From the NCBI GenBank assembly GCA_001543005.1, contig LFLB01000003.1, positions 221,797 through 285,796 of the forward strand: a stretch of 64,000 bases of DNA, written 5' to 3'. This DNA is from Candidatus Spongiihabitans thiooxidans (GTDB lineage Bacteria > Pseudomonadota > Gammaproteobacteria > Arenicellales > Poriferihabitantaceae). Every line of letters starts with the position of its first letter. Positions within the stretch are counted from its first letter, which is position 1. Positions 5,946 to 60,987 of this stretch are shown in pieces. The translations under genes were made by a program, and so were the position numbers. The notes under the pieces were generated by a model, which was given only the letters and a program-made list of their open reading frames with translations, was not told the origin of the DNA and did no database searches.

Positions 5946-8900
5946 TTAGCAATCATATGGAACGGTACAAAGGGCGTGTTGCAATAGATTGATAATCTCC
6001 GTAGCCTTTCCTTTCGCCAGGAATATCCCCTGTTTTCGGCAGTCTTGTTCTGTCATTGTGCAATCGCTTCCAATGTCTTTAGGCTGTGTGGCCGACCAGA
6101 TATAGGAATGCAGGAAAATCTCGGGTTTTTTCTCTTTAATCTTTTTCTCGGTTTCTTTTATCCGTTTGTGCAAATCCACTTTGGATTTGATTTTGCTGTC
6201 AAAGCGCACAAGCCCCTTGGGATCGATAAACAGAATGTCCTGCCTGTTTGAGTCTCTAACCCAAAGAATGAAATCTGGGTAAAAAGAATAATCATCAAAG
6301 AAAGAAACCCCTTTCCCACGGCTGAGATTACGCATCAGGTATATCTCTTTGCCTTGTAGAAAATCAATATTCTGGTTTTCCACAATAACTTTCAGGTATT
6401 CAACAAAATCAGCTTCGCCATCATTCAGCGCAAGCGGTGAGATTTTAACGGATTCTCCCGCACCGACAGATGCTTGAAGCAAGGGAATGTAAGCATGAAA
6501 AGCTGGCGCCAGAAGCGAGAGTTGAAACGCGCCTGATTTAAATTTCTCATCGTAGTTACCTTGCGCCACCTCTTTCGCCAACTGCTCAATGTCTCGTATC
6601 AAATCCTTTTCTTTTACATCAACCGACAGCTGGTATGCTTCGACATAGCTCAAGTTTTCATCATCCAGCGGAACGGCTTCAATGTATTTGTGTTCCCAAA
6701 TGCTTCTCTCTCTGCGCCAATATTGGTTTGCATATTCACAAATCAAGTCAACCGCAAGGTCTTCCCACTCGCGCACTCTTTCATAGTGTGACGGTTCAAG
6801 TTTTTCAGGCGGAATGGTAAGTACATACCAATCCTGATTTTCAAGCAGTTGATTCACTGTTGCCTGAGAAATAGTCATGTTATGCCATGAAAATAGATGC
6901 TTGCGCTCAAGCATTCGGTGATAGACCGACAGTTTGTTTATCAAAGCCAAATACTTTTTTTCAAGTTTGTGTTCTTCTTTGGCAGATGCGTGGCCGCCTG
7001 CTTGATTTTCATTCGATTCAAGAACCTGCAAATGCTTGTAGCGGTCAAGCGTTACCCTATCCCGTGCCTTCGGTTGGCTCGGTAAATCAAGACGCTTGTC
7101 CGAATATTGAAACTCGCCTGCATTGTCCTGCTTTTTGAGTATTTTTAAATCCCTTGCATTTCCAAACTGTTTCTTTGTCGGCAATGTAATTGTAATTCGA
7201 TTGACTGCGACCCCTTCTTTTTGCAGGTAGTCCTTGAATTTGTCCATATAGTTGGCTTTGAGGCCAAAGATGTTTAGCGTTTCAAGAAGTTTGAGTTGGC
7301 CGCTATCCTGTGGGATTGCGCCTTCAAGCGCGGTATGCCGCTTGAGCGACATGCCACGTCCCTTGAGGCGGACACCGCGTCCGAACATCTGGATAATTTG
7401 CGGCCCTTCGCCGGTTCCCACATGCATAAGCCCCATAGTGCTGACCCGCCAGGAATTCCACCCGGCTGCAAACTTGCGCGCGCCGATAACGATATTCACC
7501 GGAGAGTTGTTGTTATCCACATCGGCAAAAAGCGGTTTGGCAAATGCGTCCTTTGCAAGAGAAAAGAGTCGATTTTCAACCGCTTCAAGTTTTGTGTAAA
7601 GCCCGGATGCATCTCCAACATTGACCACCCCGAACGCGGCCGCGTCTCCAACCTTGAATTGAAGTTCGTCCGCTCCGGTGAGATGCGATATAAGCAGTTG
7701 CCCTTTTCCGCGAAACACGATCGCGCATAAGTCATTGTAAATGGCTTGCGGCTGCATTTCTTTAATGTAAGAAAAAGACTCGCTGAATATGTCCTTTCCG
7801 TTTTCATCAATAAGCCCGGTACTGCCGCTTGTGAGTTTCTTAATACCCGTTATCACTTGTTGCGGTTGGCTTTGCGCCCAAGCCAGAAAATTGATGATTC
7901 GGATTACATCGGTTTCCGTTTCTTTCTTGCCAGCGGTCTTGCCTCCGGTGACCGTCTTTCCGAGAAAAACCCAAAGCGGCGGTGCGATGTTGAACTCCCG
8001 CCACTGCCCACCTTTATCCTCGAAAATCCGGCATTGCTGATAAAACATCAACAAGCAGGCAAGCAAATAAACATTGTTCGCCTCGCCGTCATCGGTCTGT
8101 TGCAGATTGGATATTTGATAATCCTTGCCGTAGCCGTCTCCATAGAAAAATTTGTATGAATAATCAAACAAAATTGATTTGCCGTATTCATCGCGCAGTT
8201 TCTTGATTTCATCTCCGCTGCCGGAAACCGCCTGATTAAATGTCGCCGAGTATTCAAAGGTGAACCCGTTTGTGGCAAGTTGCTTGCGCCGTTTTCTCCA
8301 CACCTTGCCGCCGGTTCCCAGATGACCCTCATCCACCATGACAAGATTGTTTTCTTCAAAGGATTCCAGAGCGACCCGCTTAATGCCTTTCCTTTCATCC
8401 AGTTTGTGCAAATCAATGATGTCCACGATTGCGCCACCCTGAGAAAACAAGCCCGGCCCCGCATTGTCGGAGAAAAGTTGCGCCGGTATGCCGCTTGATT
8501 GCAACTCGCGCAAGTGCTGGCGGGAAAGCCCCTCGTCCGGCGTTACCAATATAATTTTGTTGAGTTTGTGCAGCTGTTTGTATTCTTTCAGGTAGTGTTT
8601 GTATTGCAGGATGTTGGCGTGCAAAAGAAGCGTTTTGCCGGAGCCGGTCGCGCTTTGGAAAGCAAGCGTGCGCAAATCGTCAATCGTATAATCGGCAATA
8701 TCGGACGCCCTCTCTCGTCGTTTCCATTCGTTTAGTTTTTCAATCAGGATTTCCGGATCTTGAAAATACAAGTCAAGATACCGCTCGGTAAAAAGCAAGG
8801 CGAGATACTGAAACGGTTTCCACGATTTGCCCTTTTCATTCGTCATCCCCAAAGTCTGGCTATGGGCGAGTATATTTTCGTCATAGCGGGCAAGATCACT

Positions 8901-13318: not shown

Positions 13319-13366
13319 TGTCGTCTTCTGGGGTCGTCTTCTGGGGTCGTCTTCTGGGGTCGTCTT
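13319..13366. repeat. 13-bp tandem repeat (gtcgtcttctggg, about 3.6 copies) 12 nt upstream of the pdxJ start
   Basis: Read directly from the sequence. In the minus sense it reads GACGACCCCAGAA, which shares the GACGACCCCA core with the repeat family at 27.0-27.4 kb. Confidence 0.9.
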
Positions 13367-20705: not shown

Positions 20706-21389
20706 ATGCAAGACCACTTGAAAGTCACAACCGGCGCTGCCGGATTATTTAACCATATCCGTGCCGCTATTGTTAATGGTGACTACGCTTATAACGAGCG
20801 CCTACCTTCCGAGAGAGCCCTGGCAAAGCAATTTTTCGTAGCGCGAGGAACAGTAAGAGCCGCTCTCAATCAATTAGAACGAGCGAATTTTGTCAGAAAA
20901 AAGTTTGGCAGCGGCACATTTATTCATTACGACATCAAATTCGACCAGGACACTATATCTGAAGAAACCAGTCCGTTGGATCTAATCGAGACTCGACTGG
21001 CCATAGAACCCTATATTGTTAAATTGGTAGTCTCTAACGCCAACAATCGGGAGCTAAGAAAACTGGAACAAGCATTAGACAATGTCGTTAATTCTCAACA
21101 AGACCCGGATTCTTTTTCATCCGCAGATGAAGCTTTCCATTTAATGCTGGCGAACTGCTCCCAAAACCCCTTGCTGATTTGGATGTATCAGCGAATTAAT
21201 GATATTCGCCGCCATACCCAATGGAACCACCGTAAACATAATATATTAACACCAGAAAAAATAGCTCAATACAACCAGCAACATAGCGATCTACTAAACG
21301 CCATAATCAGGCGCGATATGGAAAGCGCGTCCAATCTAATGATCCAACACTTGAATCAGGCAAAGAAAGATTTGTTGAAAGATTCTTGA
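20706..21389 (+). CDS. GntR-family (FadR/FCD subfamily) transcriptional regulator
   Basis: Winged helix-turn-helix LPSERALAKQFFVARGTVRAALNQLE followed by an all-helical C-terminal domain. It is divergent from the FAD-oxidoreductase operon. Confidence 0.85.
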   Translation: MQDHLKVTTGAAGLFNHIRAAIVNGDYAYNERLPSERALAKQFFVARGTVRAALNQLERANFVRKKFGSGTFIHYDIKFDQDTISEETSPLDLIETRLAIEPYIVKLVVSNANNRELRKLEQALDNVVNSQQDPDSFSSADEAFHLMLANCSQNPLLIWMYQRINDIRRHTQWNHRKHNILTPEKIAQYNQQHSDLLNAIIRRDMESASNLMIQHLNQAKKDLLKDS

Positions 21390-21604
21390 TGGCGGAAGTG
21401 CAAATAACGCATCGTTACATGGACGTAACTTATTAGAGCAATGCAGGAACAATTGCCGAGGAGCAATGATTTGCCATTACGTCCCTGCAAAATCGGCATA
21501 CGACCGCCAGGGATGGCGGAAGTGCAAATAACGCATCGTTACATGGACGTAACTTATTAGAGCAATGCAGGAGCAATTGCCGAGGAGCAGTTATTTGCCA
21601 TTAC
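21389..21604 (+). repeat. Two 92-bp direct repeats with a 124-bp period, GGA-rich and hairpin-forming, starting at the GntR stop codon
   Basis: Copy 1 is 21389-21480 and copy 2 is 21513-21604, nearly identical. Each contains GTTAC-ATGGAC-GTAAC and GCAATGC-AGGA-(A/G)CAATTGC hairpins. I count 9 GGA on the plus strand. The same module occurs inverted at 27.08 and 27.32 kb. Confidence 0.9.
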
Positions 21605-21618
21605 CATCCATGTAAATC

Positions 21619-21643
21619 GCCGCGGTTGAAAACCGACCGCGGC
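21619..21643. terminator. GC-rich hairpin between the convergent GntR/repeat unit and the amt operon
   Basis: gccgcggt (21619-21626) pairs perfectly with accgcggc (21636-21643) around a 9-nt loop. The flanking U-tract is weak on either strand. Confidence 0.35.
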
Positions 21644-21667
21644 TTGAATAGTAAAACCAATTATTCA

Positions 21668-21835
21668 TTATTTGTACTTGTCCTCGGCAGCCTTTTCCGC
21701 TTTTAAAGACACCAACACAGGAATGATGCAAAGAATCACACTGACCCAGAACCAGAGTACGGGGCCGCCGGATCCAGCATAGCTGAAGAATGCAGCCGCA
21801 CCGTCCCAGGCTTGAATTGGACTTGAATTAAACAT
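21668..21835 (-). CDS. Small single-pass membrane protein (55 aa), absent from the ORF track (below 60 aa)
   Basis: My translation is MFNSSPIQAWDGAAAFFSYAGSGGPVLWFWVSVILCIIPVLVSLKAEKAAEDKYK. A GGAG sits about 10 nt upstream of the ATG. The ORF starts 26 nt after the amt stop on the same strand. Confidence 0.45.
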   Translation of the reverse strand: MFNSSPIQAWDGAAAFFSYAGSGGPVLWFWVSVILCIIPVLVSLKAEKAAEDKYK

Positions 21836-21861
21836 AGTAATTTTCTCCGATAGTTAAAGGT

Positions 21862-23163
21862 TTAGCTTTTAATTTCTTCAGGATAGGCTGTACCAACCAC
21901 TTCAACATCCATACCCGCTCGTTGAATTGCATCGCTGGCGCGAAGTATGCCACACATTTTGAAAATCAGTGAGATCACGTATCCAGGGATAAAACCCAGT
22001 AGGACCATAACAATCATGCCCTTAAACTGACCCATGAAAGTCGCTGGGGGAATGTCAGCAGAGAACTCTGGATAACCACCCATAAATATGCCAACAGCGA
22101 GCACACCCCAGATACCACAAATACCGTGCACAGATACCGCGCCTACTGCGTCGTCAATACCCATACGCTCGAAAATACCCGCGGCCCATGGACCGAGAAT
22201 ACCGCCCGCGAAGGCTATGGCGAAACACAAACTTGGGTCCCAGACATCCATACCCGCAGCTACGGAGATAATCCCGCAAAGGGCGCCGGACATCATCCAG
22301 AAAGGATCCCGGGTCATGGCGTAACAACCAATAATGCCACCTGCTACCCCCATCAGCGTATTGAAAGTGATTGCTGATAGTGTTGTTGGCTGACCGTAGA
22401 TGTTGGTCCAATTTACTGCGTCAAAACTTACGTCCGTTCCCGGAAAGATGAGGCAACCAGCAAGAAAGCCAAAGAAACCAAAAACAATCAGCATTAATCC
22501 CGCACAGGTCATGGGCAAACTATGACCTTTGATTACGTTGGGTGAGCCATCGTCGTTGTATTTGCCGATTCGAGGTCCAAGATTGATCAAAATACCTAGG
22601 GCAAAAAACCCTGAAATGATATGTACCACACCAGAGGCGCCAAAATCGTGGTATCCCCACCCAGTCACCATCCAGCCAGCATAGTGCCATCCCCACGATG
22701 CAGAAAGATTCCAGACCACAGAGCCGAGCACCACCGCCAGCACGATGAATGCAGCCATTCTGATACGCTCGATAACCGCGCCAGACATGATGGAGGCCGT
22801 TGTACAGGCGAATAAGGTAAACGCACCCCAGAATACGCCCGTGGCATGATCCTGCAGGTTTGGACCCATGGAATCACTCCATGGCACACCACCTGCCCCT
22901 GCTTCGAAATCTGGTATGAAACCATTGATCATTGCCAGATATATCCACCATCCAAACATATAGAATGTTGGAATCATGAATGCAAAGGCAAGAATGTTTT
23001 TGGTGCCGGAAGCCAGGGTGTTTTTGACGCGGGAGGCGCCCATTTCGTACATCAAAAAGCCAGCGTGAATCAGGATCATTATGGCGGTACACCAATAATA
23101 ATAAACCTCGAGGTTTATTGTATTGGCCGCCATAACGGCCGCTTCTAGTTCTTCTAGAGTCAT
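21862..23163 (-). CDS. amt: Ammonium/methylammonium transporter, Amt family
   Basis: Polytopic protein with Amt blocks (DFGASGVVHIISGFFAL, SVHGICGIWG). I place the start at the ATG at 23163 (MTLEELE...) because it is preceded by AGGAGG. The track ORF extends to 23226. Confidence 0.9.
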   Translation of the reverse strand: MTLEELEAAVMAANTINLEVYYYWCTAIMILIHAGFLMYEMGASRVKNTLASGTKNILAFAFMIPTFYMFGWWIYLAMINGFIPDFEAGAGGVPWSDSMGPNLQDHATGVFWGAFTLFACTTASIMSGAVIERIRMAAFIVLAVVLGSVVWNLSASWGWHYAGWMVTGWGYHDFGASGVVHIISGFFALGILINLGPRIGKYNDDGSPNVIKGHSLPMTCAGLMLIVFGFFGFLAGCLIFPGTDVSFDAVNWTNIYGQPTTLSAITFNTLMGVAGGIIGCYAMTRDPFWMMSGALCGIISVAAGMDVWDPSLCFAIAFAGGILGPWAAGIFERMGIDDAVGAVSVHGICGIWGVLAVGIFMGGYPEFSADIPPATFMGQFKGMIVMVLLGFIPGYVISLIFKMCGILRASDAIQRAGMDVEVVGTAYPEEIKS

Positions 23164-23590
23164 TTGCTCCCTCCTGTAATAAGGTTGCTTACAAAATTGT
23201 TTTGCGTTATGGCCACATCCAAGCATCAGGATATACCAAAGATTCCAACTTGTGGCGGCCTGCTTATTGTATTTGTTACCTCTACGAAAGAGGTAACGGC
23301 TGTCAATTCTACTTGCTTACGAAAAATATAAAAACTGTTTTTTACACCATTTGGTATAGAAATGGTCTTGCACTGAGCCTTGCTAATTTAGACGAAATTC
23401 CTGCTTACCCTGTGACTCGCCACCGAACTGCATTATTTATGGCGTAAATTGTTTTGTGCAAAATACGGTATAATTCCGCCGAATTTCTGGCATAACCTTA
23501 GCTGATTCGAAAAGCGATATGACAATTATTACCGAGTCAGTAATTTTATAAATACTGTTTTAATTGTATTTTTTCTTAATTGATTAACGA

Positions 23591-24044: not shown

Positions 24045-24088
24045 CATTCCTGCTTGATTCATTCCTGTTGATTCATTCCTGCTTGATT
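24045..24088. repeat. 15-bp tandem repeat (cattcctgcttgatt, 3 copies, the middle copy 14 bp)
   Basis: Read directly from the sequence, immediately after the cytochrome c5 stop codon. Confidence 0.9.
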
Positions 24089-26845: not shown

Positions 26846-26989
26846 AAACTGAGGGATGCGCATCATAACTTTGTAACAAAATAAAGTGGTGGCATATCGA
26901 GAACCCTTTATTCATGGCTTTGTGAACTTACGGACAAAATTGTTTGTTTCAGGACATTCCATTCATCAGCACCGTAACAACGGATATTT

Positions 26990-27383
26990 TCGTCGGCTTT
27001 GGCATCCTCGGCAATTGCTCCTGCAGGTGATGAACAGGAAGTTCAAATGTCGCGATGGCAGGATGCCAATGAGCGACCTCTAATAAGCTACGTCCATGTA
27101 GCGATGCGTCGCTCTACCTCCCCCGTCCCTGGGGTCGTCGGCTTTGGCATCCTACCGCTCTCGACTTCTGTTCCAGACTCAGTTCTATCTCCCCCATCCT
27201 TGGGGTCGTACCTCCCCCGTCCCTGAGGTCGTCGGCTTTGGCATCCTGCGTCGCTCTACCTCCCCCTTCCTTGGGGTCGTCGGCTTTGGCATCCTCGGCA
27301 ATTGCTCCTGCATTGCTCTAATAAGCTACGTCCATGTAGCGATGCGTCGCTCTACCTCCCCCTTCCCCTGGGGTCGTCGGCTT
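26990..27383 (-). repeat. Mosaic repeat block of about 45-bp units that form ANGGAN-loop hairpins on the minus strand (candidate Csr/Rsm-like RNA or REP-like element)
   Basis: By hand count there are 19 TCC (GGA on the minus strand) against 2 GGA on the plus strand within 27005-27366. There are five CCCC-loop-GGGG hairpins (27121-34, 27192-205, 27215-28, 27263-76, 27359-73), two GCTAC-ATGGAC-GTAGC hairpins (27087-102, 27325-40) and four AGGATGCC modules. Confidence 0.9.
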
Positions 27384-28213
27384 CTTTTACTGTATTGCCT
27401 GGATTTTTTGAGTGGTTTAGGAGTAACCACCTTGTCGTTGTCGTCGTTTTTCTCCAGCTTTTCGATTACATCTGCACCAAGTTCAATCCAGTCTCCTAAT
27501 TTAATCCCTCTTGGCAGTGCAACTTTTCCGTACCGAATTCGAGACAGTCTACTTAGTTTGCAGCCAATCGCTTCCCACATCCGCCGAACTTCACGGTACT
27601 TTCCTTGTTTGACAGTAACCGAATACCAGGTATTACTGCGCTCTCCTCGTTGGCGTCTAACCTGTAGAAATTGAGTCAAATGCCCCTCAATCTTTATGCC
27701 TTGTTTTAATCGATCGAGTGATTCATTATCAACTTGCCCATATACCCTGCACAGATATTCTCGCTCTAACCCGAGTTTTGGATGCATCAAATGATGGGCA
27801 AGATCGCCATCATTGGTGAACAACAATAATCCACGGGTATTGATGTCCAAACGACCAATCACAACCCAACGCTCTCCTTTCAATACCGGTAGGCGGCGAA
27901 ATACGGTCGGTCGATTTTTCGGGTCCGACCGGGTACAAATTTCCCCTTCCGGTTTATTGTACAGAATAATACGTTTTTGACGATGGTGTCGCTTATTCCC
28001 GAGCTTTCTTTTTGGGTGGTCTTTTAATGGTCGGCCATCAATATTTATCCGACTACTTGAAGTAACACGATCACCCAGTTTGGCAATCTTGCCATCAACC
28101 GTTATTTTCCCTTCGCTTATCCACTCTTCTATTTTTCTTCTGGAAGCAACCCCGATACTGGATAAATATTTCTGCAGCCGTTCTCGAGCAAGACCGGCAT
28201 CATATCGTGGCAT
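27326..28213 (-). CDS. rluB: 23S rRNA pseudouridine synthase RluB
   Basis: N-terminal S4 domain (LQKYLSSIGVASRRKIEEWI), a RsuA/RluB-family catalytic core (GRLDINTRGLLLFTNDG) and a basic C-terminal tail. The last ~19 codons lie inside the repeat block. Confidence 0.9.
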   Translation of the reverse strand: MPRYDAGLARERLQKYLSSIGVASRRKIEEWISEGKITVDGKIAKLGDRVTSSSRINIDGRPLKDHPKRKLGNKRHHRQKRIILYNKPEGEICTRSDPKNRPTVFRRLPVLKGERWVVIGRLDINTRGLLLFTNDGDLAHHLMHPKLGLEREYLCRVYGQVDNESLDRLKQGIKIEGHLTQFLQVRRQRGERSNTWYSVTVKQGKYREVRRMWEAIGCKLSRLSRIRYGKVALPRGIKLGDWIELGADVIEKLEKNDDNDKVVTPKPLKKSRQYSKRSRRPQGKGEVERRIATWT

Positions 28214-29736: not shown

Positions 29737-29785
29737 AATCATTTGCACACTTTCATTTGCACGCTTTCATTTGCATGTTCATTTA
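29737..29785. repeat. 14-bp tandem repeat (tttcatttgcacgc, about 3.5 copies) between trpS and scpA
   Basis: Read directly from the sequence. The last partial unit contains the trpS stop codon. Confidence 0.85.
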
Positions 29786-31710: not shown

Positions 31711-33120
31711 TTAGCCATTGTATTTTCCGGTTGGATTGCGCGCTTTTGATGCTATTTTATTTTCTGCGGCACTGCTTGCTGCGCCCTTTTTGGGGTGCCT
31801 TTTTGGGCCTCTTTTTTGATTCGAGTTACCGCGCCCCTTTTCAACCGTTGTTTCAATCATTGATTGGCGCTGATGAAAATCGCAGTCCTGTATTTCGGTC
31901 CACCAATCCACAATATCCTTGCTGACTTCCCCAATTTCCTGACGCAATAACAAAAAATCATAAGCCGCTCGGAATCGCCTGTTTTCAAGTAATCTTTCAA
32001 TGGATCGCGGAATTCTGTTTTCCAACAAAGATTGCATTTCCCATATTTCATGCGCCGGCCCTTTAACTCGCAAAGGCAAAGTAACTGAACTGGACTGCTG
32101 TTTGAAAACCAGATCGCTGGCAATCCAGAAAGCTTCATTTCGTCGCACTCCTTTTGAAACCAGTCTTTTAAATTCAGTTTTGAATGGCCACCACAGCATT
32201 ACCGCAAATAAATACGCAGGAATAACCGGCTTATTTTGTCCAACCCGTTTATCGGTATTGTTAAGCGCACTCAAAATTAACGACTCAAATTTATCCCCAC
32301 CTTCCTGGTTGATACATTTCACCGTTTGCGGAAACAAATAATAAAGCAACAGCGTTTCTCTTAATCGTAGCCAGGTTTTCGCTGCCGCAGAATGGTGAAA
32401 CAACTTCAAGACTTCCTCGAACAACCTCGCCGCCGGAACATCTTGGAGTAGTGCGGCATTTTTTTCAATGGCAGCTAAAATGGATTCCCCTACCTGCAAT
32501 CCCAGTTTGGACTGGAACCGAACAACGCGTATCATACGAACCGGGTCTTCAGAAAATCGAAGATTTATATCGCCAATTATCCTTAATGTTTTTGTCTTCG
32601 CGTCCTCAATTCCGTTAACAAAATCAATAACCGTTTCTTTATTTGGGTCGTAATACATGGCGTTGATGGTGAAATCTCGTCGAATTGCATCAACCTCAAT
32701 GGTGCCGTAAACATTGTCGTCTAAAATTCTGCCGGTACTCGAAGCCTTTGATCTGCCACGAAATCCCTTTTTATTTGCACTGTCGGGCATAGCACGGTAA
32801 GTCGCTACCTCAATTATTTCACGCTCACGACCACGACCAAAGGTGACATGCACGATCTTGAACCGCCGCCCAATTATCCGAGCACGATCAAAAATTTTCT
32901 TGATCTGTTCGGGGTTGGCATTGGTGGTAACATCGAAGTCTTTGGGCTTTCTGCCCATCAATAAATCTCTGACACAACCACCGACTAAATAACCGTCGAA
33001 ACCCGCTGACTGTAATCCTCGGACTACTTTTATGGCGTTTTGACTAACGCATGACTTATCGAATCCCAACTCGACGGCAGAATGTTGGGTGGGTTTCAGG
33101 TGCGTTAATTTCCGTTTCAA
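31711..33120 (-). CDS. pcnB: Poly(A) polymerase I
   Basis: Nucleotidyltransferase block GGCVRDLLMGRKPKDFDV and a basic C-terminal tail. Confidence 0.9.
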   Translation of the reverse strand: MKRKLTHLKPTQHSAVELGFDKSCVSQNAIKVVRGLQSAGFDGYLVGGCVRDLLMGRKPKDFDVTTNANPEQIKKIFDRARIIGRRFKIVHVTFGRGREREIIEVATYRAMPDSANKKGFRGRSKASSTGRILDDNVYGTIEVDAIRRDFTINAMYYDPNKETVIDFVNGIEDAKTKTLRIIGDINLRFSEDPVRMIRVVRFQSKLGLQVGESILAAIEKNAALLQDVPAARLFEEVLKLFHHSAAAKTWLRLRETLLLYYLFPQTVKCINQEGGDKFESLILSALNNTDKRVGQNKPVIPAYLFAVMLWWPFKTEFKRLVSKGVRRNEAFWIASDLVFKQQSSSVTLPLRVKGPAHEIWEMQSLLENRIPRSIERLLENRRFRAAYDFLLLRQEIGEVSKDIVDWWTEIQDCDFHQRQSMIETTVEKGRGNSNQKRGPKRHPKKGAASSAAENKIASKARNPTGKYNG

Positions 33121-33244: not shown

Positions 33245-33877
33245 TCAGCCGGATTTTTTGATGTCCAGTTTTTTGATACCCGGTTTTTTGATAATTGCCC
33301 AGGTGGCAGGAATAACCAGCATGGCCAACACTATTTTAGCCAAATCGCCCAATAAAAATGGATTCATGCCCCATTCAAAAATCGGTTTATCCCAGCCCAA
33401 TACATTGGCCAGCCAAATCAAACCGGGGATGTAGATAATCAGGTTACCGATGAGCATCGCGGCGAAAGTCAAGGTTAGCTTTCTATCCCAGCCTTTTTCT
33501 GCAAGGTAGCCGGTTGTCGCCGCGGCAATAACAAATCCCAGTAAATATCCCCCGGTCGGCCCCATCATATAAACCAGACCAATTCCTTTTTCAGGGGTGC
33601 CGGCGAATACCGGAAACCCGAAGATGCCCACTGCCAGATAAAGCAATACCGTAGAGGCGCCCAATTTCCAACCATAGATGATACCTAACGCCAGAACCAC
33701 AAATGTCTGCATGGTCATGGGCACCGGATAAAATGGAATTTTGATCTTGGCCGACAGCGTTAACAGGGCTGCGCCGATTGCTGCCAATATAATATGCCTT
33801 ACCCAACTTCGGTCGTCCGACAATGCGGGCCATAAAACAGTGGCCAGGGTAGGAAAATGGATTGATTGCGATGTCAT
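33245..33877 (-). CDS. bioY: Biotin transporter BioY
   Basis: 210-aa, six-TM ECF S-component-like protein with BioY-type blocks (PVPMTMQTFVVL, GPTGGYLLGF). Confidence 0.8.
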   Translation of the reverse strand: MTSQSIHFPTLATVLWPALSDDRSWVRHIILAAIGAALLTLSAKIKIPFYPVPMTMQTFVVLALGIIYGWKLGASTVLLYLAVGIFGFPVFAGTPEKGIGLVYMMGPTGGYLLGFVIAAATTGYLAEKGWDRKLTLTFAAMLIGNLIIYIPGLIWLANVLGWDKPIFEWGMNPFLLGDLAKIVLAMLVIPATWAIIKKPGIKKLDIKKSG

Positions 33878-42739: not shown

Positions 42740-42960
42740 AAAAATAAGAAAGCAGGTATTACCCGCAAATGCCGTATGCTCACTTGCCTTGAACCAAAAG
42801 GGTCCAAAGTGGGCGCAAAGAATAACTTCGGGATTCGCGCCAGCTCAACGCTGAGGTCATACACACCCGTCATTCATAACAGCACCCGAATTGATAGATT
42901 AGGTTCTAAGGGTTTCGGAGAACAACTCGAACACCGCAGGTAATACCCACACTGAGTCTA
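42740..42960 (-). ncRNA. ssrS: 6S RNA (ends approximate)
   Basis: It lies in the 411-bp gap between zapA and ygfA, the conserved ssrS position. A long closing helix is present: ggtattacc (42755-42763) pairs with ggtaatacc (42939-42947) and extends with G-U pairs. A GGUUCAAGG hairpin segment lies about 35 nt from the 3' end in the minus sense, as in E. coli 6S RNA. Confidence 0.6.
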
Positions 42961-43112: not shown

Positions 43113-43463
43113 TTATGGGCTCCAGGATACAGCCTGCTGACTATTAGTCACGACTTTGTCGATCTGGTCATGCAGCGATTGCAGTCTGGAATCCATATTT
43201 TCTTGCATACCAACGGCCTTTTGAATTTGCAGCAATGAATGGGCGATGTTTAAACCGGCCATGATTGCACAGCGATCGATTGACAGAATCTGACTGCCTT
43301 TGCTAATAGCCCGCATTTGTTTATCGAGATATGCCGCAGCTTCGACCAATCCTTCGGCTTCTTCATTACTGCACGCCACGGTAAATTCCCGCTGCATTAT
43401 GCTCACTTTCACACTTTGTTTCACGCTTTGTTTTACGCTTTGTTGCGGTTCCTGTTCTGGCAT
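43113..43463 (-). CDS. zapA: Cell division protein ZapA
   Basis: 116 aa. VSIMQREFTVACSNEEAEGL aligns with the ZapA N-terminal pattern. It has an N-terminal QSVK x3 repeat. Confidence 0.8.
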   Translation of the reverse strand: MPEQEPQQSVKQSVKQSVKVSIMQREFTVACSNEEAEGLVEAAAYLDKQMRAISKGSQILSIDRCAIMAGLNIAHSLLQIQKAVGMQENMDSRLQSLHDQIDKVVTNSQQAVSWSP

Positions 43464-45273: not shown

Positions 45274-46667
45274 CAACGGAAAATAATCCCGGAAACCACG
45301 CCCACGGACGGGATGATGCAACGGATATCATCATCATCGGCGGTGGTCTGGTGGGTGCCAGTCTCGCGGTCGCCCTCAAACCCACCGGCAAGAATGTGTT
45401 GCTTGTTGAATCTGTCAACCCTCAATCTAACGATCAATCGGCCCATCAATCTAATGACGACGAACGCACCGTGGCGCTGACCCACAGCGCAAAACTAATT
45501 TTTAGCGCAATGGGTATTTGGAAAAATATCCAGGCTATCCAGGCGCAGCCTATTTTAGATATTCACATATCAAATCGAGGTCATTTTGGTCAAACTCATC
45601 TATCCCATAAAGATGCCCGAATCAATAATACCAGGATCAATGCATTGGGTTACGTGGTGCCCATCAAGGTGATTGGAAAAGTTCTGTGGGCGCAATTGAA
45701 AAAGGATAAAAATACCCGAATTGTTTGCCCTGCCTGCGCACAAAATCTGCAGCAACACCGTGACTTTTGCTCAGTGGAAATTATCCATCAAGGAAAAACC
45801 AAACGCATCAAAGCAAAGTTGGTGGTGCTGGCGGATGGCGGTCAATCATCTCTTGGTCAGCAATTGAATCACGATGCGCAATTTCATCACAAAGCGAGGG
45901 CCACCGACTACGCACAATCTGCTGTTTTAAGTATCGTGACCACCGACCGACCCCACAATGGACACGCCTACGAACGCTTTACCGATGAAGGGCCACTGGC
46001 ACTGCTACCACATAGCACGATTGAGGGCACGGGTGATAGCGTGGGTGATGGCGTGGGTGATGCCAGGAGCCGATATGCTTTAGTGTGGACCACCCACCGG
46101 GATAATGTGGCATCGCGGATGTCTTTATCTGATGATGAATTTCTCGCATCGTTGCAAGATACATTCGGTGATCGTGCCGGAAATTTTAGCAATCCATCAC
46201 CGCGCAATCATTACCCGCTCAAACGCTCAACACTGTCCGACCCAGCCAGCGGACGAGTTATTATTATCGGCAATGCCGCCCATACCGTACATCCGGTGGC
46301 TGGGCAAGGATTTAATCTGGGATTGCGGGATGTCGCCGAACTGGCCGAAATTATCTTTAATCTGCCGGATTCGGACCGGGAAAATTCGGACCTGGAAAAT
46401 TTCGACCTGGGCGGTGAATCGATGATCAATGCCTACACTCGAGCGCGCAAGCGCGATACCGAAATGGTGAATAAATTGACCCACGGTTTAATAGCGGTTT
46501 TTTCCAACGATTCAAAAACTTTGGGCTTTATCCGAAATCTTGGGCTCACAACTATCGAGCATTGCCCACCAGCCAAACGATTCTTGTTGAAACGCACGAT
46601 GGGGCTTGCCGGCAGGCAATCGAAGCTGGCTTTGGGCATTCCCCTTGATATCGCACTGAGCGAATAG
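45270..46667 (+). CDS. ubiH: 2-octaprenyl-6-methoxyphenol hydroxylase (UbiH-type flavin monooxygenase)
   Basis: IIIIGGGLVGASLA and GNAAHTVHPVAGQGFNLGLRD blocks. It overlaps pepP by 4 nt. It contains two low-complexity tandem insertions. Confidence 0.85.
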   Translation: MTTENNPGNHAHGRDDATDIIIIGGGLVGASLAVALKPTGKNVLLVESVNPQSNDQSAHQSNDDERTVALTHSAKLIFSAMGIWKNIQAIQAQPILDIHISNRGHFGQTHLSHKDARINNTRINALGYVVPIKVIGKVLWAQLKKDKNTRIVCPACAQNLQQHRDFCSVEIIHQGKTKRIKAKLVVLADGGQSSLGQQLNHDAQFHHKARATDYAQSAVLSIVTTDRPHNGHAYERFTDEGPLALLPHSTIEGTGDSVGDGVGDARSRYALVWTTHRDNVASRMSLSDDEFLASLQDTFGDRAGNFSNPSPRNHYPLKRSTLSDPASGRVIIIGNAAHTVHPVAGQGFNLGLRDVAELAEIIFNLPDSDRENSDLENFDLGGESMINAYTRARKRDTEMVNKLTHGLIAVFSNDSKTLGFIRNLGLTTIEHCPPAKRFLLKRTMGLAGRQSKLALGIPLDIALSE

Positions 46668-55200: not shown

Positions 55201-55549
55201 TGACACCACCACCGCCGGCAAATACGCGGATTTTGTCTCCGCCATTTTGACGTAGCATATCCATCATGTACTTGAGGTATTCGACATGCCCGCCCTGATA
55301 AGAGCTCAGTGCGATACCGTGCGCATCTTCCTGCAATGCGGCATTCACCACTTCGGCAACCGAGCGATTGTGCCCAAGATGAATAACCTCGACACCCGAC
55401 GCCTGCAGAATTCGACGCATGATATTGATTGCCACATCATGCCCATCGAATAAACTGGCCGCGGTGACAAAGCGAATATTTGATATCGCTTTTACTGACA
55501 ATGGGTTGGCCTTGCTTAAAATAGTCTTGCCCACAATAGTCTTACCCAA
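52232..55549 (-). CDS. icmF: Fused isobutyryl-CoA mutase IcmF (B12-binding domain + MeaB-like GTPase + mutase domain)
   Basis: 1105 aa. It has an N-terminal B12 domain ([15 protein letters not shown]), a P-loop ([12 protein letters not shown]) and a C-terminal methylmalonyl-CoA-mutase-like barrel. TTG start. Confidence 0.9.
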
Positions 55550-55599
55550 AATAATCCTCGCTTCCGAAGTTGGATTCTGTTAGCTTTGCAACTTACATT

Positions 55600-56048: not shown

Positions 56049-56216
56049 TTATTCTTTGAACGTGGTGCCGAGTATAGGTTTTGTTTAAGTTTGGTGTTTA
56101 ATTCAAGCTCGTGCTCGTTCCTTTAAAATATAAGGGTGCGAAGTGAAATTGGAAACCATGCGCGACAATTTAGCCAACAAAAATCAACCTGATAAAATTA
56201 ACCTGAGAAAATTAAC

Positions 56217-58055
56217 ATGACCTACACAGCACCGACCCGGGATTTATTGTTTTCAACCGTGCATTTAGCCGACCTTGAAGGCGTTGCCGCCCTGCCCGGA
56301 AATGCAGACGCAACCGCAGATCTGGTGGAAGCGATATTGCGGGAAGCCGCAAAAATCGGCGAGGAAATTCTCGCGCCGATAAACCGAAGCGGCGATATTA
56401 ACGGGGTGAAATTGGTGGATGGCCAGGTGCAAACCGCGGCCGGGTGGAAAGAAGCCTATGCCACATTCATCGAAGGCGGTTGGAACGGATTGCCGTTCTC
56501 GCCGGATCGCGGTGGTCAAGGCTTGCCTTGGCTGGTGGCAACGGCAATCCAGGAAATTTGGCATGCATCGAATATGGCTTTCTCTTTGTGCACATTACTG
56601 ACCCAAGGCGCCATCAAAGCCATTGAGTTGCACGGCTCCGATCAGCAAAAAGACACCTTCATGAATAATATGATTTCCGGCATCTGGTCCGGCACCATGA
56701 ATCTGACCGAAGCCGATGCCGGATCAGATCTGGCCGCAGTAAAAACCCGGGCCATAGCCGATGGCGATCACTATCTGATCAGCGGCCAGAAAATTTTTAT
56801 TACCTATGGCGATCATGATTTAACAGAAAACATCATCCATTTAGTGCTTGCGCGCCTGCCGGATGCGCCCGCAGGGGTTAAGGGAATATCGCTGTTTATT
56901 GTTCCTAAATTCCTGCCCGATGAAAACGGCAAATGGACCGTACGTAATGATATCGAAACCATTTCCCTGGAACACAAATTGGGTATCCACGGTAGCCCCA
57001 CGGCAACACTGGCTTACGGTAGCGGAAAATATCGTAGTGACAAAAACCAGAAAAAAACCGGTGCTATCGGGTATTTGGTCGGTCAAGAAAACCACGGCAT
57101 GAGTTACATGTTCACCATGATGAATGTCGCCCGGCTTGCCGTCGGCATTGAAGGCAATGGTGTGGCAGATCGCGCCTACCAACAATCTGTACGGTTCGCC
57201 AATGAACGTGTCCAGGGCACCGCGATTGAGAATCCGAAAGGGGCTCGCGTCACCATCGTCAATCACCCGGACATCAAACGCATGTTGATGTTGCAGAAGT
57301 GCCGAATCGAAGCGCTGCGGTCACTGGGACTGGTATTGGGCGCATCTTTCGATAAAAGCCTTAAACACCCCGATCAGGAAGTACGAACATTCAACCAGGC
57401 CATGGTTGAAATACTTACCCCAATCGCCAAAGGCTATATGACGGAAATGGGACTTGAGAATGTATCCATCGCCTTGCAAGTACACGGCGGAATGGGCTTC
57501 ATCGAACAAACCGGTGTGGCGCAACATTATCGTGATCAACGGATTACCCCTATTTATGAAGGCACAAATGGCATTCAGGCATTGGACCTGGTTGGCAGGA
57601 AACTGCTTCGCGACCAAGGCGACATGGCGCGCGCCGTCATCGAACACATTGGCAAGGAAATGGAAACCGTACACCATACTACGTTGAGTTCAATGCGTGC
57701 TCAGGTAACCGAAGGTCTGAACGCAGTAGAGCAAAGCATGAATACGATTCTGAAAATGGCAAGCGGTGATACTGCCGGCGTTGATATGAAGCAGGCGGCC
57801 GCAATTGCCGACCCCTATCTTCGGCTTTGGGGCACGGTAATGTGTGGCTGGCAACTGGCAAAAGCGGCAAGCGTGGCCATGGATTTTATCGATCTTGATG
57901 ACGGTGGAGATCCGTTTTACCGAGCAAAAATTGAAACCGCAAAATTTTATTTTGCCTATGAAATGCCAAAAGTTGCCTATCATCAAGCGGTGATAAAACA
58001 AAGCGCGAATTGCATCGCCAATCTTGATACCGCTATTTTCGAAACGCTACAATAG
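56217..58055 (+). CDS. Long (about 600 aa) acyl-CoA dehydrogenase
   Basis: Acyl-CoA dehydrogenase N-terminal, middle and C-terminal domain pattern (GTMNLTEADAGSDL, ITPIYEGTNGIQALDL) with a C-terminal extension. Confidence 0.9.
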   Translation: MTYTAPTRDLLFSTVHLADLEGVAALPGNADATADLVEAILREAAKIGEEILAPINRSGDINGVKLVDGQVQTAAGWKEAYATFIEGGWNGLPFSPDRGGQGLPWLVATAIQEIWHASNMAFSLCTLLTQGAIKAIELHGSDQQKDTFMNNMISGIWSGTMNLTEADAGSDLAAVKTRAIADGDHYLISGQKIFITYGDHDLTENIIHLVLARLPDAPAGVKGISLFIVPKFLPDENGKWTVRNDIETISLEHKLGIHGSPTATLAYGSGKYRSDKNQKKTGAIGYLVGQENHGMSYMFTMMNVARLAVGIEGNGVADRAYQQSVRFANERVQGTAIENPKGARVTIVNHPDIKRMLMLQKCRIEALRSLGLVLGASFDKSLKHPDQEVRTFNQAMVEILTPIAKGYMTEMGLENVSIALQVHGGMGFIEQTGVAQHYRDQRITPIYEGTNGIQALDLVGRKLLRDQGDMARAVIEHIGKEMETVHHTTLSSMRAQVTEGLNAVEQSMNTILKMASGDTAGVDMKQAAAIADPYLRLWGTVMCGWQLAKAASVAMDFIDLDDGGDPFYRAKIETAKFYFAYEMPKVAYHQAVIKQSANCIANLDTAIFETLQ

Positions 58056-58413: not shown

Positions 58414-60987
<2,574 letters not shown>

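Follow-up and report, generated by a model that had tools for sequence, protein, structure and literature searches.

We analyzed a 64,000-nucleotide stretch of the genome of Candidatus Spongiihabitans thiooxidans (contig LFLB01000003.1, positions 221,797 to 285,796; hereafter the window), in which a block of hairpin-forming repeats follows a gene for a GntR/FadR-family regulator. With moderate confidence, we read this block as a small cluster of a dispersed, mosaic, nested and apparently mobile hairpin-repeat family in the 3' untranslated region (UTR) of the GntR gene, similar to the repetitive extragenic palindrome (REP) and bacterial interspersed mosaic element (BIME) repeats or to small dispersed repeats (SDRs). 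The modules of this family behave as interchangeable building blocks: they sit in several hosts, are gained and lost between sister genomes, form tandem arrays, and enter coding regions in frame. Its 48-nt core module sits precisely, in fixed orientation to a G-rich target (GCA^GGA or AAGG^GAA), without target duplication and with empty sites elsewhere.

Hairpin modules follow the GntR gene and recur at 27 kb

The block consists of a 108-nt direct repeat (21388-21495 and 21512-21619; 91% identity) with a start-to-start spacing of 124 nt, for which Tandem Repeats Finder gives a period of 124, 1.8 copies and 93% matches; a 39-nt repeat probe matches twice in the 64-kb window, both times in this block, where 0 matches are expected by chance. 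An earlier note on this DNA, made from the letters alone, had described two direct repeats of this period beginning at the GntR stop codon and carrying nine GGA, and these points stand: position 21388 falls within the TGA (21387-21389) of the open reading frame (ORF) 20706-21389(+), whose product has the Pfam GntR and FCD domains, and the 232 nt of the block hold 9 GGA versus 2 TCC, above the first-order Markov expectation of 3.6 +/- 1.8 (p ~0.007). No ORF of at least 50 aa in the window ORF list spans 21389-21650. The GC-rich hairpin at 21619-21643 that was said to close the block is present; as it has no T tail, however, it goes uncalled in a scan for intrinsic terminators. Because the cluster lies between the GntR stop codon and this terminator-like hairpin, it is probably part of the GntR 3' UTR.

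The 124-nt period is made up of a 76-nt D-H-P/E unit and a 48-nt insert, A+B, named for their hairpins (Table 1); unit 1 carries its P/E remnant in fused form. Across loci the conserved core is the 48-nt A+B unit, TCGYTACATGGACGTARCTTATTAGAGCAATGCAGGAGCAATTGCCGA, with hairpin A of general form GYUAC-AUGGAC-GUARC and hairpin B of form GCAAU-GCAGGAGCA-AUUGC, while hairpin H, which hosts the insert here, has the general form GCAAAUAAY/RUUAUUUGC. The predicted fold of copy 2 places an outer stem, GCAAAUAAC/GUUAUUUGC, around GUUAC-AUGGAC-GUAAC and GCAAU..AUUGC, bearing out the two hairpins and the copy-2 outer stem of the earlier note; in copy 1 the outer stem is degenerate (ATGATTTGC). Folding z-scores are modest (unit 2, -2.0 on the + strand and -3.4 on the - strand; whole block, -3.6 on the + strand).

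The same module family recurs in inverted orientation at 27 kb, as had been noted: a 56-nt stretch of the GntR block is 95-96% complementary to 27292-27347, both differences being the compensatory pair of hairpin A, and partial copies of this stretch lie at 27078-27109 and 27005-27025. This second cluster is flanked by convergent genes, for a short-chain dehydrogenase (+) and an RluB-like pseudouridine synthase (-), and it overlaps the end of the latter. The last ~18 codons and the TAG stop of the window rluB come from repeat modules, the TAG from hairpin A, so that the RluB translation ends ..GKGEVERRIATWT* inside the repeats (27326-27385, -); the orthologue ends differently.

The 48-nt module occupies defined sites in several hosts

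We scanned a genome collection with the exact 23-mer TACATGGACGTARCTTATTAGAG and found 13 loci, 4 in each of two Spongiihabitans chromosomes and 5 in Ca. Colwellia aromaticivorans; a metagenome scan added 25 further loci (loci and contigs are cited below by L numbers). The 23-mer had 0 matches among viral contigs, and the window repeat matched no plasmid. Chance similarity or an assembly artifact has next to no probability: repeats can be mis-assembled, but these modules recur across several independent assemblies and in two bacterial orders, and 0 matches are expected by chance.

In Spongiihabitans-type DNA, A+B occupies the GCA^GGAGCA loop of three different hosts, namely hairpin H, hairpin E (GCCGATTTT...AAAATCGGC; L001, L024) and a 48-nt type-2 unit (the 27-kb locus, L005, L012). 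Hairpin H also exists without the insert (L001, two in L002, L009). The module is itself a host, since a 52-nt two-hairpin module X sits between A and B in the window (27026-27077), L010 and L003, and other inserts are nested in the B loop (L025) or between A and B (L035). Several loci share hairpins D, H, P, E, A and B, joined by fixed linkers, in a mosaic cycle D-H-P-E; hairpin D, for example, reads CCGCC-A(C/T/G)GGAT-GGCGG in L002, L009, L016 and L025, and type-2 hairpins come as CCCC..GGGG and CUGC..GCAG variants. A second, unrelated palindromic repeat (GGATTCCTGCTTCCGCAGGAATGAC-like) adjoins the GGA-module clusters of Spongiihabitans-type genomes (L003 ~7600-8000, L046 3440-3470).

In Colwellia-type loci the 48-nt core (ACGCTACATGGACGTAGCTTATTAGAGAATGCAGGAGCAYATTCTCCT) lies within a ~330-bp element resembling a miniature inverted-repeat transposable element (MITE), with terminal inverted repeats TATATACCCG/CGGGTATATA. 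We aligned four copies of this host element, a Pseudoalteromonas homologue, L007, L008 and L018. Both insertion sites are empty in the Pseudoalteromonas homologue; in L007 and L008 (form 1) the 48-nt insert lies at AAGG^GAAT; in L018 (form 2) it lies at AAGG^GAAC on the opposite strand, and the AAGG^GAAT site is empty. Neither site shows a target-site duplication. Inversion between the host arms was considered as the origin of the two forms and rejected, as L018 is colinear with form 1 throughout and its site 2 is empty. In pairwise comparisons among 21 copies, the 48-nt insert is on average 96.9% identical and the 110-nt host flanks are 69% and 61% identical, which points to an insert that is either much younger than its hosts or far more strongly constrained.

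The ~330-bp element is dispersed in Colwellia-type contigs (L004, L006-L008, most of L013-L038; L043 440-830), has internal hairpins, and occurs in all intergenic contexts, including divergent promoter regions. Unannotated homologues of it lie on Pseudoalteromonas chromids; this was the sole match of a plasmid search with the Colwellia element, and it served as the empty homologue.

Module content turns over at orthologous loci

We compared the sequence 3' of the stop codon in GntR orthologues with their flanks, using the window as reference together with five loci. The window has two units; L040 (GntR 95% identical to that of the window) has one H hairpin with A+B; L010 (95%) has the same plus the 52-nt module X; L039 (91%) has D/E/P modules only, without A+B; and L041 (85%) and L042 (83%) have no repeats. 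The GntR stop lies at the same position in 6/6, so that these orthologues (83-95% identity) share it with or without repeats. The GC hairpin is found 3' of the modules in all repeat-bearing genomes (L010, L039 and L040 besides the window), and the order GntR / 55-aa ORF / ammonium transporter gene (amt) also holds in L039 and L040.

Other gene ends show similar turnover. At the pcnB 3' end of OZ250154 a ~700-bp type-2 array lies ~20 codons ahead of the ancestral stop and gives PcnB a ~230-aa tail, (TTPRMGEVERRRMPKP) repeated ~13 times; the window pcnB (31711-33120, -) has no type-2 array. An array of ~10 units lies 3' of erpA in L012 and also in L044, whose contig ends within it, and is absent in L046 and L047; no promoter-like site precedes it. 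We had considered the erpA-grpE array as a conserved "master" CsrB-like locus and rejected it on its absence in L046 and L047. From this module turnover, none of the GntR, pcnB and erpA loci behaves as a conserved RNA gene. The 48-nt type-2 units have several open frames and are translated in places (L005 6842-7996 -; window 27326-27385 -; L012 7668-7716 +), and GrpE contains one unit in frame in its N-terminal part (DDCMDAGDRATQDAKAD).

Past the erpA stop, the native sequence (TAGACGAC) is identical to the opening bases of the type-2 unit, GACGAC (L012 6785-6795, L046 3331-3340), and the junction of the erpA array may lie at this microhomology. In L044 the Logan contig ends at 3424, within the type-2 array just past erpA, which suggests that short-read assemblies are interrupted by type-2 arrays and contain too few of them.

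Stem complementarity is conserved

The compensatory GYUAC/GUARC change that the earlier note saw between the two window loci is general. In 26 distinct copies the variable pair of hairpin A is CG in 17, UA in 8, UG in 1 and unpaired in 0, the other four pairs being essentially invariant, and the variable pair of hairpin B in Spongiihabitans-type copies is UA in 8, CG in 2 and UG in 1. Across nine sequences with H and E hosts mixed, the alifold consensus shows 7 pairs of the outer stem around A+B changed on both sides, and all alleles of hairpin H are self-complementary (GCAAATAAC/GTTATTTGC, GCAAATAAT/ATTATTTGC, GCAGATAAT/ATTATCTGC, GCAGATATT/AATATCTGC and GCAGGTATT/AATACCTGT). Uncompensated stem changes, which had been named as evidence to the contrary, are confined to mismatches in a few copies (window copy 1, L009b, L019).

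On these alignments the stem covariation is real and extends beyond the two loci, and it is consistent with RNA or single-stranded DNA structure alike. The covariation argument of the earlier note is thus right and can be generalized. The asymmetry of G-U over C-A mismatches (~5 vs 3, counted by hand) does not tell RNA from DNA structure, and repair templated by the hairpin could also have produced the paired changes.

GGA loops and the case for CsrA/RsmA-type binding

All nine hairpin types (A, B, H, E, D, P, type-2 and both X hairpins) carry GGA in the loop on one strand, and five of them (A, P, D and both type-2 variants) fit CANGGANG. The 232-nt block has three copies of this 8-mer on the + strand and two on the - strand, and the 27-kb cluster has six; ~12.5 per strand are expected in the whole 64 kb. 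Within the block the GGA lie in the hairpin loops AUGGAC and (GC)AGGA(GC) and in the linker GAGGAG. The RsmE consensus is (A/U)CANGGANG(U/A), and the CsrA consensus from in vitro selection (SELEX) is RUACARGGAUGU. Hairpins A and P, reading ACAUGGACGU and ACAUGGAUGU, fit this RsmE consensus and resemble that of CsrA, and the type-2 motif CAGGAUG is the CsrB repeat motif. The fit of the loops to CANGGANG is the strongest point for the Rsm idea of the earlier note.

The repeats may accordingly be read as CsrA/RsmA-binding arrays, both in the GntR 3' UTR and in the 3' regions of rluB, erpA and pcnB, acting as a titration sponge or coupling to mRNA stability, with mobility a mere way in which sites arise. 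GGA density in the repeats is ~1 per 16-26 nt, compared with ~1 per 17 nt in CsrB; CANGGANG is enriched in both clusters; non-homologous stems (CCCC/GGGG, CUGC/GCAG, CCGCC/GGCGG, GUUAC/GUAAC) display the same loop; and the type-2 arrays examined run sense to the upstream gene. We nevertheless regard this account as unlikely. Modules come and go between sister genomes and are absent from slightly more distant ones, and copies lie within coding sequence. Counted against flanking genes that run co-directionally, A+B is sense 7 times and antisense 2 times in Spongiihabitans-type loci and, without bias, 5 and 4 times in Colwellia-type loci; it is antisense to both neighbors in L001 and L011; and P and E modules with the opposite GGA strand are mixed within one cluster. 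Moreover, the insertion site GCA^GGAGCA is the GGA-containing loop itself, so loop conservation also has a DNA-level explanation.

The stronger form of the Rsm idea, that the blocks at 21.4 kb and 27 kb are two paralogous, independently transcribed Rsm/CsrB-like small RNA genes, is very improbable and already largely refuted. The many GGA in hairpin loops and linkers and the GC hairpin 3' of the 21.4-kb block are what such a gene would have, but the block starts inside a stop codon, which leaves a promoter no space; the 27-kb block extends over the coding end of rluB; the GC hairpin is without a T tail; and content is unconserved at orthologous loci, with modules at many unrelated places. A consensus scan of the + strand found no sigma-70-like site either in the GntR 3' end, where the earlier note had considered a promoter, or beyond it, and no GacA box (TGTAAGN6CTTACA, within 2 mismatches) occurs in the whole window. 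Rfam searches at the gathering threshold returned only 6S RNA, elsewhere in the window, for the window and the 13 loci; at E <= 10, both window loci and the Colwellia element gave noise only, with no CsrB, CsrC or RsmX/Y/Z. Searching ~0.47 Mb (473 kb) with tblastn gave no match to CsrA, RsmA or Hfq, too little sequence to inform on csrA. GGA-rich hairpin arrays are, on this evidence, insufficient to call an Rsm or CsrB gene.

Relation to known repeat families

The cluster works most like REP/BIME/REPIN clusters (PMC3116915) and cyanobacterial SDRs. Clusters of the former kind grow by insertion into or beside existing copies (PMC3116915), as the present ones also seem to do. As in REP/BIME, the present repeats are short imperfect palindromes in extragenic 3' regions, often between convergent genes, with a few hairpin types joined by fixed linkers in mosaic clusters, tandem arrays of up to ~700 bp and rapid turnover between strains. 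REP/BIME/REPIN elements of Gammaproteobacteria are mobilized by RAYT transposases. The differences are several: A+B joins two hairpins of different sequence and is not, as REPINs are, an inverted doublet of one REP, its outer stem belonging to the host hairpin; modules are nested within hairpin loops of other modules, always at GCA^GGA, with GGA in every loop; the GTAG motif is found in only one allele; and the 48-nt module is common to two bacterial orders.

The SDRs of heterocystous cyanobacteria are very small mobile repeats of ~21-27 nt, which share with the present modules the lack of target-site duplication, nesting in one another and in other repeats, and insertion polymorphism among close relatives. 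They belong to another phylum and are unrelated in sequence, and the units here are two-hairpin modules of 48-52 nt; neither a GGA-loop rule nor in-frame tandem arrays are known from SDRs.

Palindromic repeats transcribed within UTRs are also known as enterobacterial repetitive intergenic consensus (ERIC) sequences or intergenic repeat units (IRUs) and as Correia elements, and ERIC variants carry extra blocks at fixed internal sites. In-frame insertion into genes, found here for the type-2 units in grpE, pcnB and rluB, is also a trait of Rickettsia palindromic elements (RPEs). All of these differ from the present family in sequence, in their length of 100-150 bp with terminal inverted repeats (and TA duplications in Correia elements), and in lacking the multi-level nesting of ~50-nt modules. 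CsrB/CsrC and RsmX/Y/Z share with our repeats dense GGA in hairpin loops and linkers, the motifs CAGGAUG and ACANGGANGU, and a variable repeat number. The repeats differ from them in that no promoter of their own, GacA/UvrY box, canonical terminator, synteny or Rfam match was found, and in lying at many loci, inside ORFs and partly antisense.

The insertion properties of A+B resemble single-strand HUH transposition, as in the palindrome-associated transposable elements (PATEs) of the IS200/IS605 type: no duplication, a fixed orientation to a short target, and hairpins close to both ends. One host element has AAGG^GAAY as target at two sites, on opposite strands, and in three other hosts the target is GCA^GGA. 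PATEs differ in size, 48 nt being far smaller; the hairpins here lie within 3 nt of the junctions; and no transposase was found in the 473 kb searched. With regard to MITEs, whose hallmarks the earlier note held against its own reading, the outcome is divided: insertions are precise, filled and empty sites differing by exactly the insert, and empty sites are preserved, but the 48-nt module has neither a target-site duplication nor classic terminal inverted repeats.

A possible route of spread

We suggest that the modules are non-autonomous mobile DNA, which a trans-acting single-strand enzyme (HUH/RAYT- or IS200/IS91-like) or template switching at hairpins is likely to have spread. Stem complementarity would be maintained because the hairpin itself, as DNA or RNA, is the object recognized. 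At GntR, any RNA consequence, such as 3' stem-loops on the mRNA and possible CsrA-type binding, would be a by-product and not the cause of the presence of the sequence. The opposite orientation of the two window loci within 6 kb argues against a simple replication-direction bias.

Several points weigh against a mobile family. Its abundance appears limited, with 2 clusters in 64 kb and 3-4 separate exact-23-mer stretches per representative genome, and no modules occur in 2 x 20 kb of the more distant relatives L041 and L042. A tblastn search with an IS200 TnpA query gave no match in the 473 kb searched. Certain junctions resemble microhomology deletions rather than insertions, and all type-2 arrays examined run sense to the upstream gene. 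Hairpin-templated repair (quasipalindrome correction) can yield "compensatory" changes in palindromes. Finally, GGA in every loop, with five hairpins fitting CANGGANG, would be explained more naturally by a CsrA-family RNA-binding protein than by a transposase.

E. coli BIMEs have roles such as gyrase, integration host factor (IHF) or Pol I sites or transcription barriers. A comparable DNA-level host function, through such sites or as barriers to transcription or supercoiling between convergent genes, is improbable here. Both window clusters do lie between convergent genes, and the mosaic grammar with its fixed linkers and D-H-P-E cycle would suit it; copies are also found, however, between co-directional genes, in the 5' leader of hemE (L009) and within coding regions, and GGA in every loop is left unexplained.

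If the family is mobile as we propose, sponge-symbiont and free-living marine Gammaproteobacteria have in common a 48-nt module that behaves as a site-specific mobile element, far smaller than anything with a known mobilization mechanism, whose nested clusters and long arrays in frame with genes change the ends of these genes (PcnB, RluB, GrpE). It would offer a tractable system for how REP- and SDR-like micro-repeats move. The 48-nt module common to two orders and the strict GGA-loop rule are its unusual features; literature searches on Spongiihabitans repeats, on CsrA with REP or MITE, and on nested bacterial MITEs found nothing relevant. Should the GGA loops also bind CsrA, a selfish repeat family would be seeding regulator sites across the transcriptome. 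In its fullest form, which we hold to be quite unlikely, A+B would be an undescribed class of ultra-small (48-nt) two-hairpin mobile elements homing precisely, and with no target duplication, into GGA-containing hairpin loops of other repeats and building "Russian-doll" clusters in at least two marine gammaproteobacterial orders (Arenicellales sponge symbionts and Colwellia-type Alteromonadales), with loops that are genuine CsrA/RsmA-type sites. Were both parts true, the spread of a selfish element would create and reshuffle a distributed post-transcriptional sponge in 3' UTRs.

Features of the window

The positions of the modules and their neighboring genes are collected in Table 1.

Table 1. 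Hairpin modules, neighboring genes and the 6S RNA gene in the window (positions are those of the window).
Feature	Position	Strand	Description
GntR/FadR-family regulator gene	20706..21389	+	Pfam GntR + FCD; ORF list
Repeat unit 1, 124 nt	21388..21511	+	GATGGCGG half of hairpin D, hairpin H, nested A+B, P/E remnant, 5' half of next D
Host hairpin H, unit 1	5' arm 21400-21408; 3' arm 21466-21474	+	3' arm degenerate
A+B module copy 1, 48 nt	21412..21459	+	Nested in GCA^GGAGCA loop of hairpin H
Hairpin A, copy 1	21414-21429	+	GTTAC-ATGGAC-GTAAC
Linker between hairpins A and B, copy 1			CTTATTAGAG
Hairpin B, copy 1	21438-21456	+	GCAAT-GCAGGAACA-ATTGC
Hairpin D	21504..21519	+	CCGCC-AGGGAT-GGCGG; bridges junction of units 1 and 2
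Repeat unit 2	21512..21618	+	Intact hairpin H, nested A+B, P module; fold and alifold consensus
Host hairpin H, unit 2	21524-21532 / 21590-21598	+	Arms GCAAATAAC / GTTATTTGC
A+B module copy 2, 48 nt	21536..21583	+	Nested; hairpin A 21538-21553, hairpin B 21562-21580
P module, unit 2	21599-21617	GGA strand minus	CATTACCATCCATGTAAAT
GC-rich hairpin	21619..21643		GCCGCGGTTGAAAACCGACCGCGGC; terminator-like, without T tail
Convergent neighbors of GntR	21668..23226	-	Conserved 55-aa ORF 21668-21835; ammonium transporter (amt) 21862-23226; ORF list, Pfam
Second cluster, same family	26986..27385	- (GGA strand minus)	Type-2 units, two A+B modules, module X
Module X, 52 nt	27026-27077	-	Nested between A and B
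A+B modules of 27-kb cluster	27292-27347 and 27078-27109	-	
Type-2 unit of 27-kb cluster, 48 nt			GACGACCCCAAGGATGGGGGAGGTAGAGCGACGCA^GGATGCCAAAGCC
RluB-like pseudouridine synthase gene	27326..28213	-	Pfam S4 + PseudoU_synth_2
6S (SsrS) RNA gene	42756-42945	-	Sole Rfam gathering-score match in window, 61.9 bits

Short tandem repeats with a period of 12-15 bp and 2-4 copies, unrelated to the GGA-hairpin family, are scattered over the window, at 1152-1197, 13320-13366, 24045-24088, 29739-29784, 33254-33293, 43407-43444, 46369-46410, 55518-55553 and 56180-56220. A run of 32 C (58420-58451) directly follows the ATG of an 857-aa subtilase (Peptidase_S8) ORF at 58414-60987; the tract may be a phase-variable homopolymer or a site prone to sequencing error.

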